From positions 1 through 64,000 of IMG/VR virus record IMGVR_UViG_3300015610_000750: DNA of 64,000 nt; one strand, written 5' to 3'. The notes under the pieces were generated by a model. The model worked only from the letters and a program-made list of their open reading frames with translations. It was not told the DNA's origin and ran no database searches. The DNA comes from a virus. Lineage: Duplodnaviria; Caudoviricetes. A program made the position numbers and the translations under genes. Below are positions 3,811 through 62,551 of the stretch, piece after piece (positions within the stretch are counted from its first letter, which is position 1; each line of letters starts with the position of its first letter).

Positions 3811-4122
3811 CTATAATTGTAAGAAGTATTCCTCTTCACCCAAAGCATTTGCCTTATGGTCATATGCTACTATCACTACATGATATTTTTTAGGTGCTAG
3901 TTTTGTTATACTTTTGATTTTATACATATCAAAGTCGAAATTTTCCTTCTCATGTTCATGTATTCTTATGTATGACTCGCTACATAGATTTTTACAATAC
4001 ATCTCTAGTAGTTTCATTGAAGATTTGAAAAATTGTGGCTCCTTTTTTGGTTCCTCTTTTTTCTTCTTTCTTAATGAAAGAAACTCTTCATTTACTTTAT
4101 CTATTTCTGAAAACTTTCTCAT
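3811..4122 (-). CDS. hypothetical protein with capsid-targeting-like N-terminus
   Basis: MRKFSEIDKVNEE N-terminus; TATATA motif upstream. Confidence 0.65.
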   Translation of the reverse strand: MRKFSEIDKVNEEFLSLRKKKKEEPKKEPQFFKSSMKLLEMYCKNLCSESYIRIHEHEKENFDFDMYKIKSITKLAPKKYHVVIVAYDHKANALGEEEYFLQL

Positions 4123-4157
4123 AATAGTATATATAAAAAATAAAACACCACTATTCT

Positions 4158-5276
4158 ATGAGAGTATTTATTACAACCGATTGGCACTTTGGAGTATATC
4201 TAAATAATATGGATAAATGGTTGAATATGATGGAAGATTACTTCTATAACGATTTCATACCATTTATTAAAAATAATTACAAAGAAGGAGACATACTCGT
4301 ACATTGTGGTGACCTATACGACAATAGAACTTCTATTCCAATTATTGCTGCCTATAAAGCAGAGAAAATCCTTTTAGAGATAGCCAAGATTCTACCAGTT
4401 CATATCATAGTTGGTAATCACGATTTGTGGAACAAAGGAACAAACGATGTTAACTCTGTTAGATTATTCAATTATGTTGATGGTATCAATGTTTATACCG
4501 AAACAACAACCATATCAGTTGGTGGTAAGAAATTAGTATTAATGCCTTGGGTTGAAAAGAGATTGGATATGATAAAGGAGATTAAAAACAATCCCGGTGA
4601 TTATCTTTTCTGTCACTCCGACTTAAATGGGTGTAGAATGCACCTTAGTTCAGTTGCTCATAGAAACGCTGATAAGATAGATGTTGATGAATTTAAGGGA
4701 TATAATCACGTTTTTAGTGGACACATACACATCAGACAAACAAATAATAACTTTACATTTGTTGGGTCTCCATATCAAATGGATAGAAATGATATGGGTG
4801 ATCAAAAGGGTATAACGATTCTTGACCTATCGAGTGGTGAAATGGATTTTTCACCGAATAAATATTCACCTGTTTTTAGAAAGTTCGCAGTTACTAAAGA
4901 GGATGATGTTGAGAGATTGGATGAACTTACAGATAGTAAAGATTATATAGATTTATCTATATCTAACAGCTTATTGATTAGTAATAGGAAATTAAGAAGA
5001 AAATTAGAGACTCTTTTAGAAAAAGGAAGTTTCGCATCAGTTGAGTACATTGATGATATAGTTAAAGTTGATGAGAATGGTGATGTTATAACTGAATCTG
5101 TTGTTGAGGATGAGAATGGTGAGTCTGTTTCTGTTGAACTTGAATATGAAGACTATATAAGAGATTATATTGCTAAGCAAAAATACGATAACGAGAGATT
5201 CAAGCTTGGTGTTTTGGGTGAATATAATGAAGTTGTTAAGATATACAACGAGAATTATAAGTCTTTAAGGGATTAG
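4158..5276 (+). CDS. recombination exonuclease subunit (T4 gp47/Mre11/SbcD-like metallophosphoesterase)
   Basis: DWHFG, GDLYD, GNHD, SGHIH motifs. Confidence 0.9.
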   Translation: MRVFITTDWHFGVYLNNMDKWLNMMEDYFYNDFIPFIKNNYKEGDILVHCGDLYDNRTSIPIIAAYKAEKILLEIAKILPVHIIVGNHDLWNKGTNDVNSVRLFNYVDGINVYTETTTISVGGKKLVLMPWVEKRLDMIKEIKNNPGDYLFCHSDLNGCRMHLSSVAHRNADKIDVDEFKGYNHVFSGHIHIRQTNNNFTFVGSPYQMDRNDMGDQKGITILDLSSGEMDFSPNKYSPVFRKFAVTKEDDVERLDELTDSKDYIDLSISNSLLISNRKLRRKLETLLEKGSFASVEYIDDIVKVDENGDVITESVVEDENGESVSVELEYEDYIRDYIAKQKYDNERFKLGVLGEYNEVVKIYNENYKSLRD

Positions 5277-5704
5277 TCTAACTCTCCTTTTTTACAAATT
5301 ACTATACTACATAATAGTTTACCTATTGATGTAAATGATGTGAACATATCATATCCTTCTGATTGTATATGTGATGATATGTCAGATAACTCTTTAAGAA
5401 TATTTGAGATTTCTAATATGTTATTGTTTTTCAATCCATAATGGTCTACCCCATATTCAAAGTATTGTCTTAGGTTATCATCATCATTGTCAATAGTTAT
5501 TGTGACTAATGCTATTCTTATATCATCATTATATTCTTTATCTTGTGTTATGTGAGCTGTTTTTGATCCATCAAGTGATGTCCAAGCGTGTTCTATGTCA
5601 ATAGATGATTTTCCATCATATAGTGATGACATGATATGTTTTATATCTTCAATTGATATAAAATCTTCGTGTTCTTTATTTTCGTTAAATCTTTTAATTC
5701 TCAT
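5273..5704 (-). CDS. hypothetical protein, putative internal head protein
   Basis: MRIKRFNE N-terminal motif. Confidence 0.65.
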   Translation of the reverse strand: MRIKRFNENKEHEDFISIEDIKHIMSSLYDGKSSIDIEHAWTSLDGSKTAHITQDKEYNDDIRIALVTITIDNDDDNLRQYFEYGVDHYGLKNNNILEISNILKELSDISSHIQSEGYDMFTSFTSIGKLLCSIVICKKGELD

Positions 5705-5705
5705 A

Positions 5706-60266: not shown

Positions 60267-60745
60267 TGTTCTCCACTTCTTGTTACATTTATATCTTGTG
60301 TTATATCCTCTACTGACCAGTATCCTGTTTCAGATTTAACTTTTTTAGATGTTTTCTCTAAGACATTTTCAATTTCCTCTTCTAAGATTTGCATATCATA
60401 TGTGAATTGATTTGCAATTTCTTCAGCGATGAATCTTAATTCATCTAACTTTTCTGCCTCGTCTGTGATAGCTCTTGATTCTTGAATTCTTGATTGAAGC
60501 CAACTTGTATGTTCATGTTCATTTGATTCTTTGATACTATCAATTGCATCGATCTTATCATCAATCATATCACGACTAATATCTGTCCATTTACGAGTGT
60601 TTTTATCGAATTTAGACTTCATGACATTTGGTAAGTTACCTACTTTATTCTCATTATCAGAATAACCCCTTCTATCTTTTTGTAATTCCTTCTTCTCTAT
60701 ATCTTTTGAGAAGTCGTCAAATGTTTTTACTTTCTTACCTGCCAT
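60263..60745 (-). CDS. hypothetical protein, putative internal head protein
   Basis: KVKTFDDF near the N-terminus; IKES and IQES sites. Confidence 0.6.
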   Translation of the reverse strand: MAGKKVKTFDDFSKDIEKKELQKDRRGYSDNENKVGNLPNVMKSKFDKNTRKWTDISRDMIDDKIDAIDSIKESNEHEHTSWLQSRIQESRAITDEAEKLDELRFIAEEIANQFTYDMQILEEEIENVLEKTSKKVKSETGYWSVEDITQDINVTRSGEH

Positions 60746-60779
60746 AATTTGTAGTAATTTTATAATCTATATATTAAGA

Positions 60780-61472
60780 TTAGGATTTGATTTTTTCATC
60801 TAAAATCCTTGCAATGTTTGATCCTATAAAGAAGTGTATATTTCTTAAAGTATCTGATTCAACAGTTTGAATATCATCCATGAACTTGAATTGGAATTTG
60901 TATTTGTCTTGCTCTTCATCAGTCTCTCTATCAACCTTTGATACAGATACATCCATTTTATAGTTGTTATTGACATCAACTTCAAAGTCGAATGTGGTTT
61001 TATCACAAGGGGTTGTTTTGAACTTTGGTTCATATTTTACATCAAAGATTGAATAATCAGTAATCTTTTCTCTTCTCATATAATAGTTTAAGAACATAGC
61101 GGGTGCCTCGATGAAATCACTTAAAATTTGAAGGTCCTCTCCAAAGTTTCTTGATTCTATTATATCTTCAATTTTCTGTTTCATATCAATAATATTATCA
61201 AAGTCTATTCTATGGTAAACACAGTTTATGTCATATAGATATAAGAATGATTCTTCAATTATGTATCTCTTTTCTAAGTCGGATTTGAATATGAACTTAG
61301 TATGTATTATAGATGAGTCTTCAACAGATAATCCATGTATTGAAATAACAAGTTTGTAAAAGTCTTCATCCTCAGATAGCTCATATACTGTTTCTACTGA
61401 TTTAACGACACCTTCTTCCTCTTCAAATACTTCCTTAAAAGCTTGCTCTATTTCCGATATTTTTATTTTCAT
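60780..61472 (-). CDS. hypothetical protein
   Basis: 230-aa ORF coupled to the upstream gene. Confidence 0.7.
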   Translation of the reverse strand: MKIKISEIEQAFKEVFEEEEGVVKSVETVYELSEDEDFYKLVISIHGLSVEDSSIIHTKFIFKSDLEKRYIIEESFLYLYDINCVYHRIDFDNIIDMKQKIEDIIESRNFGEDLQILSDFIEAPAMFLNYYMRREKITDYSIFDVKYEPKFKTTPCDKTTFDFEVDVNNNYKMDVSVSKVDRETDEEQDKYKFQFKFMDDIQTVESDTLRNIHFFIGSNIARILDEKIKS

Positions 61473-62551
61473 ATTCCAAAATCATCTTTTATATCTTTTG
61501 TAACATCACCTAGTGTGTTAAAAGTTTCAGTTCTATTATTCTCAAAGTCACCGAAAACTGTATTGCCATAGTTTTGTCTTTCTACTCTAATTGGTGATTC
61601 CTTATAATATACCTTTATAAAGTCAGAAAATCCTTCTGAATAACCACAAGAACCATATTCTATATCTATATAGTCTTTATTCTCATCGTAATTATATCTT
61701 AAGCTCGTAGACCAACTTTCGTCACTTTGTTTATCTAACTCTTTACTTATATTATCTAATGTGTATAGAAACTCAAGCAACTCGTCTGTATTTGATTCAA
61801 ATTGCTTATCATATGCGTATTTCTTTAACTCCATTATTTTACCAATATATCCATTTCTTCTTAGTAGTTTGAAAACCAAATTACCAATTGAGTACTCACC
61901 ACTCTCACTTTCCAATCCACTCTTTCTAAGGTCTTTTATTTTCTTCCAAACCTTATCGATTTTTTCTTTGAACGACTCATATTTATCCTCATCTACTTGT
62001 TCTTCTATATCATCAACCTTATCCATTATGGATGTTGCTTTTTTAGAAATCATCTTTTCGTCTGGTTCGAAGTCCACTTTTTCTGGCTTTTTAATCCACT
62101 TGTTCTTCATCAATGAGAATACACCACCCATTCTTCCAGACTTTATACCTTCTTTCAAGTCATCTTCGTTCTGAATTGCCACTTCAACTTCATATCCCTT
62201 AATTGTTATGTCATGTCCTGAATTCCACATCTTCTTGGCATAGTCACATAGTTGTTCAACTAGTTCTAGGTTTTCATCAACATCTCTATAATCGATTATG
62301 ATGTGTAAATCGTAGTCAGAGTATTGTTCTGACCAGTTATAGTTACATAATGATCCACATAGTGCAATATCAATAACATCTGCTTCTATATCAGTTGATT
62401 CATAGAAGTCTTGTGCTATTTGTAATAAGTCTGTTCTAACCTCTTCTGATAATTCAAAGTTATCCCATAACTTAGGATTTAAGTTGTCTTTAATATAAAA
62501 TGACTTTATAGGATCTAAGTCAGATTCCTTGAATTCGTAGAATTTTAACAT
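61469..62551 (-). CDS. Pol-beta-superfamily nucleotidyltransferase with capsid-targeting-like N-terminus
   Basis: GSLCNYNWS..SDYDLHI and EVEV motifs; MLKFYEFKES; E.GEYSIGNLVFKLLRR. Confidence 0.8.
   Translation of the reverse strand: MLKFYEFKESDLDPIKSFYIKDNLNPKLWDNFELSEEVRTDLLQIAQDFYESTDIEADVIDIALCGSLCNYNWSEQYSDYDLHIIIDYRDVDENLELVEQLCDYAKKMWNSGHDITIKGYEVEVAIQNEDDLKEGIKSGRMGGVFSLMKNKWIKKPEKVDFEPDEKMISKKATSIMDKVDDIEEQVDEDKYESFKEKIDKVWKKIKDLRKSGLESESGEYSIGNLVFKLLRRNGYIGKIMELKKYAYDKQFESNTDELLEFLYTLDNISKELDKQSDESWSTSLRYNYDENKDYIDIEYGSCGYSEGFSDFIKVYYKESPIRVERQNYGNTVFGDFENNRTETFNTLGDVTKDIKDDFGI

Follow-up and report, generated by a model that had tools for sequence, protein, structure and literature searches.

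Mullaney and Black are said to have described, in 1996, the capsid-targeting sequence (CTS) of the internal proteins of phage T4. This signal is carried by IPI, IPII and IPIII, and short N-terminal propeptides are present on Alt and gp24 (reviewed in PMC9026906 and PMC3012670). Mutagenesis of IPIII assigned residues 4 and 7 to targeting and residues 8 and 10 to processing, gp21 cuts after L/I-X-E (PMC9026906), and all gp21-family proteases studied cut after Glu (PMC5694885). Here we analyze a short N-terminal peptide, which we call the tag, in a 64,000-nucleotide (nt) stretch of phage DNA (positions 1 to 64,000 of IMG/VR record IMGVR_UViG_3300015610_000750; hereafter the window). About one gene in seven of this virus opens with the common ten-residue tag, which is virus-specific and confined to one lineage. 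The mechanism with the best support is loading into the capsid with subsequent trimming; from a layout analogous to that of the T4 signal and from genomic context, we place its probability at roughly 45%.

The window covers the first 64 kb of a contig of 103,139 bp, with a guanine-plus-cytosine (GC) content of 31% and a CheckV completeness of 18%. Its nearest named relatives are the uncultivated genomes LR756502.1 (642 kb) and LR745206.1 (635 kb), with 80–84% DNA identity across the head genes, and remoter relatives of its capsid protein are found in other 460–735-kb 'huge phages', in Lak phages and in cultured Bacteroidota jumbo phages. We regard the source as an uncultivated T4-related phage with a genome of roughly 600 kb. 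The original prediction, made from the letters of the window, held that 19 of its genes share a T4-like capsid-targeting peptide and suggested a scan with a motif model. To avoid circularity, a position matrix was trained on tags from another genome, LR756502.1, and then applied to the 120 N-termini of the 103-kb contig with a threshold score of ≥8. The matrix from the relative recovered the tag, as 19 of the 120 N-termini scored as tagged against 0.12 expected from the internal rate. A simple regular expression, for which 668 internal Met sites of the contig served as the first control, matched 14–16 of the same N-termini and 4 of the internal sites. LR756502.1 was taken whole, with 962 open reading frames (ORFs) called and 3085 internal Met sites as control. 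The pattern M[KR][HYF][LIVM]..[YFW] alone matched 109 ORF starts and 2 internal sites in this genome, and three patterns combined opened 142 ORFs, or 15%; over the patterns, the range was 109–142 of 962 starts versus 2–12 of 3085 internal sites. A half-motif alone occurred 81 times, with about 2 occurrences expected.

All 19 positions named in the original prediction are ATG starts of real ORFs with the N-termini quoted for them. That these genes share a motif was confirmed: 14 pass the matrix (5704, 6239, 6549, 7909, 20112, 30371, 31774, 32394, 33944, 38374, 43179, 46365, 55619 and 60745) and four carry looser variants (4122, 8283, 22841 and 62551), but the gene at 34614 has no tag. The loose variants at 8283, 22841 and 62551 have orthologues in LR756502.1 that start tag-like; the gene at 4122 is without an orthologue there. 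Six to eight tagged genes lie past the window on the same contig (67231, 76288, 83697, 86258, 88623 and 89980, and possibly 88696 and 100687). The consensus, which spans residues 1–11, reads M1 K2 [HY]3 [LI]4 [KR]5 [KRT]6 [YF]7 [NEK]8 [E/I/S]9 [FSY]10, and three subtypes can be told apart (Y-N-E-S, F-E-S-[FY] and Y-K-[IL]-F-E-S). No description of the tag was found in the literature searched. Even if its destination is other than the capsid, one peptide heading 11–15% of a virus's ORFs constitutes an undescribed sorting system.

A 27-nt degenerate tag pattern matched at least 96 IMG/VR stretches, mostly on contigs of 60–500 kb, and gave only 3 matches in 596 Gb of prokaryote genomes. A looser pattern matched 22 times in LR756502.1, with 0 control matches; MA9V-2, pT24 and PTm1 (all cultured phages), Lak-C1 and the 735-kb genome LR756501.1 gave no match. 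A shorter dialect, MIKK[FY]..FE, is present on 24 of the 538 ORFs of LR756501.1. PTm1 and MA9V-2 are cultured Bacteroidota jumbo phages with T4-like heads, and tag-like N-termini occur in both at background level (1 of 300 in PTm1, with 30% GC, and 1 of 197 in MA9V-2, with 36% GC). Neither AT richness nor a host among the Bacteroidota nor a T4-like head is therefore enough by itself to create the motif.

In the main tag class, all 72 members have L, I or V at residue 4 and Y or F at residue 7; because the pattern that defines the class already demands this, it is the Glu that is informative. A Glu lies within two residues after [ILV][KR][KRT][FYW] in 62% of N-terminal versus 12% of internal occurrences (p=2e-12), and hydrophobic-x-Glu follows the half-motif in 63% versus 20%. 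Two positions ahead of the first Glu, 63 of 86 tags have F, Y, I or L, and 19 have K or T. Shorter tag dialects keep the same spacing of three between hydrophobic positions.

A T4-type CTS sits at the very N-terminus and is about 10–19 residues long. Like the T4 CTS, the tag is an N-terminal peptide of about 10 residues on unrelated accessory proteins, with Lys2, a hydrophobic residue 4, an aromatic residue 7 and a Glu at residues 8–11, and this phage has gp20, gp21 and gp23 homologues as T4 does. In layout, then, the tag is like the T4 signal, as the original prediction had it; in sequence it is not, being unlike MKTYQEFIAE. When T4 sequences read from AF158101 were scored with the tag matrix, the N-termini of IPII/III, IPI, gp24, Alt and gp22, including MKTYQEFIAE and MKTFKEF, fell at or below the median of untagged N-termini; these scores show no sequence-level similarity of the tag to the T4 signal. 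Two positions ahead of the Glu, the tag mostly has Tyr or Phe where T4 has Leu or Ile, and 110–140 predicted proteins per genome carry it here versus about 5 with the signal in T4.

A second parallel is offered by the giant phages phiKZ, 201phi2-1 and SPN3US, which also combine a gp21-family protease that cuts after Glu with dozens of in-head proteins (PMC5694885, PMC10052503). Their propeptides, to which prohead targeting has been ascribed by inference, are 80–130 residues long, differ between proteins and are backed by proteomics, whereas the tag is short, shared and read from gene sequences. SPN3US has 86 virion proteins, about 33% of its genes (PMC5694885), and the number of tagged proteins is therefore not out of range. 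Encapsulin cargo peptides resemble the tag in that they are short, disordered and portable and load unrelated enzymes into an HK97-fold shell; they differ in being usually C-terminal, in binding the shell protein, in remaining uncleaved and in serving one or a few cargo types.

Comparisons of the protein bodies indicate that the tag is a portable, modular peptide, probably an address, on otherwise unrelated accessory proteins, in agreement with the earlier claim of a portable tag on unrelated proteins. After removal of the first 15 residues, 95 tagged proteins of LR756502.1 fell into 91 groups that were unrelated in all-against-all BLAST. Orthologues nonetheless keep the tag: each of the 21 tagged genes with an orthologue in LR756502.1 shares its tag class with that orthologue, with bodies 30–78% identical. 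Tagged proteins vary in length from 49 to 910 residues. A Pfam domain was recognized in only about 9 of 91 tagged LR756502.1 proteins, and a Pfam or PHROGs family for about 2 of the 19 window proteins; among 40 untagged proteins, sampled non-randomly, about 40% had a Pfam family versus about 10% of tagged ones. The folds found among the tagged proteins of LR756502.1 include lysozyme, SET, NUDIX, methyltransferase and a 2H phosphoesterase, which the anti-CBASS Acb1 model matches as well. Among the cargo functions named for the window, SET was upheld by Pfam and the P-loop ATPase received weak support, but the amidoligase, cysteine hydrolase and nucleotidyltransferase were confirmed by neither Pfam nor PHROGs. 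The tag was absent from all recognizable structural proteins (portal, capsid protein, protease, terminase, sheath, tube, hub and gp15-like) and from all recognizable replication and other enzymes (SbcD-like nuclease, clamp loader, Dam, NADAR, HAD and glutamine-synthetase-like). The motif is thus not equally frequent on replication proteins; equal frequency there was what the original prediction had named as counting against its proposal.

Individual families show how the tag is joined to its carriers. The SET-domain protein (32394..32852, +; 152 residues; Pfam SET, 4.7e-13) begins MKYLKKFNEKF, continues with an acidic, Pro-containing linker and carries its SET domain at residues 37–141. Its 24 closest homologues are all tagged, whereas about 95 more distant homologues are untagged, their N-termini lying about 17 residues further in, at the domain itself; this distribution indicates that tag and linker were added to a domain of probable host origin. 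The closest untagged homologues are 50–62% identical and lie on 0.15–1.26-Mb contigs of metagenome-assembled genomes (MAGs) of Flavobacteriales, Chitinophagaceae and other Bacteroidetes. As an observation in its own right, the placement of these untagged homologues in Bacteroidetes MAGs suggests that the host is one of the Bacteroidota and that the gene was captured. In the family of the acidic protein at the end of the head gene cluster (55619..56176, +; 185 residues; MKLKNYKELFEE; passing the matrix), 35 orthologues have the tag, then a hypervariable acidic linker of 0–90 residues and then a conserved body. This linker is rich in Asp, Glu and Tyr, the acidic tail nearly always ends in Pro-Phe or Pro-Trp, and the composition brings to mind gp67 and gp68, two proteins of the T4 prohead core.

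The 157-residue protein encoded directly upstream of the portal gene (46365..46838, +; MKHLRKFEEL; passing the matrix) has a tag that is nearly invariant in 19 orthologues of 41–73% overall identity. In its AlphaFold2 model (predicted local distance difference test score, pLDDT, 86.6), residues 1–7 have a pLDDT below 50, residues 1–11 form no secondary structure, and residue 12 is the first of the fold. The tag of this protein is thus predicted to be disordered and to lie outside the fold. A Foldseek search of the model against PDB gave no match at E≤0.001.

The head module is, by its predicted products, T4-like with a gp21-family protease. It includes a portal of the T4 gp20 family (46906..48597, +; Pfam Portal_T4, 4.3e-56), a 689-residue protein in which the gp21-family prohead protease is fused to a scaffold-like region (49599..51668, +; phrog_207, 2.4e-30; Pfam Peptidase_S77, 7e-4) and a major capsid protein of the T4 gp23 family with an N-terminal propeptide-like region (51751..53448, +; Pfam Gp23, 1.6e-29). 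The protease-scaffold protein is a candidate for both the cutter and the docking partner of the tag. Its translation contains 11 tandem 14-residue units, YSEY[LI]AENLDKNIx (50451..50918, +), followed by a poly-Glu stretch; 7–14 such units are found in 79 relatives, and they are also present in LR756501.1. Each unit offers two hydrophobic-x-Glu sites, Y-S-E and [IL]-A-E, and the unit sequence YSEYIAE resembles the YQEFIAE of the T4 IPII/III signal. An IVE-N site is present at the protease N-terminus. In the N-terminal region of the capsid protein, KKWAPVLE aligns with T4 NKWKPLLE, and I-N-E-N is invariant in 53 relatives where the propeptide boundary would be expected. The likely substrates of the protease, namely the scaffold (YSE and [IL]AE), the capsid protein (INE-N) and the protease itself (IVE-N), thus appear to carry the same kind of site as the tag. 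A complex prediction for the full protease-scaffold protein paired with residues 1–60 of the 46365 protein, using alignments for both, returned 'no answer' with a score of 0.00, which counts neither way.

Separately, we note that the capsid protein opens with MSHIRID (51751-51775, +), a start that does not vary across 53 relatives. It has M-x-H-I-R in common with the tag, as seen next to MKHIRKF of 30371, but no aromatic residue at position 7.

A T4-type large terminase is also present, and the window contains tail sheath, tail tube and baseplate-hub-like genes. With these head and tail genes, the window is largely a structural region in which many small genes of unknown function are interspersed. 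Tagged genes flank the head cluster (46365 and 55619) and the sheath gene (19552 and 20109).

The observation in the original prediction that many tagged genes follow TAATATATA was borne out as an enrichment of an ATATATA box. On the contig, 17 of 26 tagged genes have ATATATA in the 45 nt ahead of them, as do 34 of 94 untagged ones (p=0.013), and in LR756502.1 the box precedes 53% of tagged versus 23% of untagged genes (p=3.5e-9). Its usual form is T[AT]ATATATA, and the window holds 39 copies where 20.5 are expected. The same box is found 19–29 nt before the ATG of the portal, protease, capsid, sheath, terminase and gp15-like genes. In tagged genes it lies mostly 4–8 nt before the ATG, which suggests nearly leaderless transcripts. 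A host-type TAnnTTTG box precedes 5% of tagged and 10% of untagged genes in LR756502.1, and a gene for a gp55-like late sigma factor is present (42333..42698, +; phrog_234, 5.2e-7). The box pattern would fit late, phage-driven expression.

From layout and context we infer docking, cutting, packaging and injection. The exposed, basic and amphipathic tag would make its carrier co-assemble with the prohead core, that is, with the acidic repeat region of the protease-scaffold protein. The gp21-family protease would then cut after the conserved Glu, releasing the mature protein in the head, and this protein could accompany the DNA out of the head when the next cell is infected. A more specific version, in which a clade of Bacteroidota phages with genomes of about 600 kb loads more than 100 proteins, enzymes captured from the host such as a SET methyltransferase among them, through docking of the tag on YSEY[IL]AE and cutting after Glu, to supply a starter proteome along with the DNA, is one that we hold to be doubtful as a whole. 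If the tag is a capsid address, it would provide in one step a list of the injected protein arsenal of the largest known phages, with more than 100 mostly unknown proteins per genome that would be likely to serve host take-over and defense evasion, and T4's three-protein trick would scale to a tenth of the proteome. Being short, modular and easily recognized, the tag could be used to mine metagenomes for cargo and be tested as a packaging handle.

Other explanations for the shared start have to be weighed against capsid loading. It might be an expression or gene-shuffling cassette with no role in sorting, the first 30 nt favoring a nearly leaderless late mRNA or forming a homology patch behind the promoter. 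The close spacing of ATATATA to the ATG would fit such a cassette, as would codon 2, which is AAA in 87% of tags, the C-ending codon 3, and tandem arrays with near-identical tag DNA. These two codons are, however, the only biased ones: nine codons are in use at residue 4, Lys/Arg, Phe/Tyr and Glu codons occur in genome-like proportions, and at residues 4, 5 and 7 and at the Glu, synonymous and conservative codons replace one another freely. The box is missing from half of the tagged genes, the tag being as common with it as without it (59 versus 50 genes), and the codon 3 bias is stronger in tagged genes that lack it. About 96 box-proximal genes have no matrix-scoring tag, though many of them start loosely tag-like. 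The 120 closest database homologues of the 31774 protein are all of the same tag class and yet display 82 different first 12-mers, and PTm1, of the same GC content, is without such N-termini. Collectively, these patterns point to selection on the tag as a peptide, and we consider a cassette improbable. It has also to be asked whether the tagged proteins are one very divergent paralogous family with the N-terminus as its best-kept remnant, given that about 90% of them have no Pfam family and that many tagged genes stand in tandem arrays (LR756502.1, 10–36 kb and 419–426 kb). Shared descent was rejected by the all-against-all BLAST with its 91 unrelated groups among 95 proteins, and is difficult to reconcile with the variety of known folds and lengths or with a SET domain that clearly predates the tag; we give it hardly any credence. 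As a side observation on the two arrays of small tagged genes, their tag DNA is nearly identical (ATGAAACACTTAAAGA...) while the bodies are unrelated, and tag-coding DNA might double as a recombination patch for gene shuffling.

The main competitor of capsid loading is a signal for some other destination or reader, such as a membrane anchor, a phage-made compartment, a chaperone or a multi-client modifying enzyme. A modular, exposed, N-terminal and phage-specific peptide fits this equally well, the tag is basic and amphipathic where the T4 signal is acidic, and for capsid cargo a share of one gene in seven is large. Such a signal has no candidate reader identified, however, and leaves hydrophobic-x-Glu, the T4-type protease and scaffold, and the tagged genes around the head and sheath genes without a role; as a membrane anchor, 3–4 hydrophobic residues with Asn and Glu would be weak. 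We regard another destination as possible though unlikely. Several observations nonetheless weigh against capsid loading. Under the tag matrix, MKTYQEFIAE scores at the median of untagged N-termini, and the tag is basic at residues 5–6, where T4 has Gln-Glu. A Lys or Thr stands two before the first Glu in about a quarter to a third of tags (the FES[FY] subtype); without a hydrophobic residue at that position, a gp21-type site is not universal. A cargo of 110–140 protein species per genome would, to our knowledge, be larger than any packaged set on record. The position of the box, 4–9 nt before the ATG in 41% of tagged versus 11% of untagged genes (p=8e-14), is not predicted by capsid loading, and ATATATA also precedes the ribonucleotide reductase gene, so that it may be a general phage promoter rather than a late one. 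Finally, no cultured relative with the tag was found among MA9V-2, pT24 and PTm1.

The tagged genes of the window not yet placed begin with a group on the minus strand. At its outer end, the 103-residue product of 3811..4122 (−) has a weak short variant, MRKFSEIDKV, which is under the threshold and has no orthologue in LR756502.1; the box lies 5 nt upstream. The gene at 5273..5704 (−; 143 residues) starts MRIKRFNENKE with a score of 15.2, and its LR756502.1 orthologue starts MRIRRFNEN, with a body only 37% identical. Next to it, 5706..6239 (−; 177 residues) encodes MKIKRFNESEA (score 18.7); its true start is 6239 and not the upstream ATG at 6272, the tag standing at an internal Met, 11 codons downstream of where the longest ORF begins. 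The 102-residue product of 6241..6549 (−) starts MKYLKTFQELNE and scores 12.2, with no Pfam family. The P-loop ATPase-like protein (6551..7909, −; 452 residues; AAA_16, E=2.9e-4; phrog_1250, 1.4e-37) opens with MRVIRKYQAFYE at a score of 9.1, and its orthologue with MKIKKYQAFYE. The loosely tagged gene at 7909..8283 (−; 124 residues; MGRIIKYRDFISEE) is under the threshold; its orthologue, MSRIRKYKEFITES, matches the regular expression, and ATATATA lies 6 nt upstream.

Just upstream of the tail sheath gene, 19552..20112 (−) encodes a 186-residue protein starting MRYLKKYLLFKEE (score 11.5; orthologue MKYLKGYSSFNED). Next to it is a loosely tagged gene for 910 residues (20109..22841, −; MKYLKIREDFLNK), under the threshold, whose orthologue starts MRYLKQREEFIRNN; the two bodies align only over residues 440–909. 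On the plus strand, the 206-residue product of 30371..30991 scores 11.3 and has an orthologue starting MKHIRQFESY, and the 202-residue product of 31774..32382 starts MYIKRFESFSD and scores 15.8. The gene at 32847..33944 (−; 365 residues; MRHISRYNLFEE; score 13.6) has the orthologue MKHIIKFSLFEE and no Pfam or PHROG family. The N-terminus at 34614..35276 (+), MKINEVAKSQQQ, is not a tag and fails all patterns and the matrix. For 38374..38970 (+; 198 residues; MKYIRKYNESES) the true start is 38374, the score is 18.2 and the box lies 5 nt upstream. The 101-residue product of 42874..43179 (−; MKIKKFNELYEQ) scores 14.1 and shares its first 12 residues with its orthologue, at an overall identity of 64%. 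Toward the end of the window, 60263..60745 (−; 160 residues; MAGKKVKTFDDF) has its tag in a shifted register (score 12.3; orthologue MAKKKIVSFNDF), and the loosely tagged 61469..62551 (−; 360 residues; MLKFYEFKESD) is under the threshold, with an orthologue, MIMLSKFYEFKE, that matches the regular expression; it belongs to phrog_36119, of unknown function.

A tag-like sequence was also seen ahead of the HD-domain gene, in the same reading frame (36728-36766, −), where ATG AAG TAG ATT AAA TTC reads MK*IKF. The TAG stands where tags have His or Tyr, and the same arrangement recurs at 37750 and 37910 (−). In a check for amber read-through, TAG was found to end 14 of the 120 genes, the contig was without tRNA genes, and no suppressor was present among the 46 tRNAs of LR756502.1.

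Two gene-free stretches adjoin the head genes, 49117-49598 (482 nt) and 56177-56781 (605 nt); a search with Rfam across the whole window, both stretches included, returned no RNA family. Between the capsid gene and the tagged gene at 55619 sit a protein with an NFACT-R RNA-binding domain (53531-54220, +; Pfam, 7e-15) and an M20/peptidase-T-like protein (54259-55617, +; phrog_4191, 2e-65; PDB tripeptidase, 9e-5), both of which are unusual for a head module. Untagged auxiliary genes at 43274-44359 (−), 45073-45603 (−) and 57376-58955 (+) encode glutamine-synthetase-like, TnsA-like endonuclease, NADAR-domain and Dam-type methyltransferase products.

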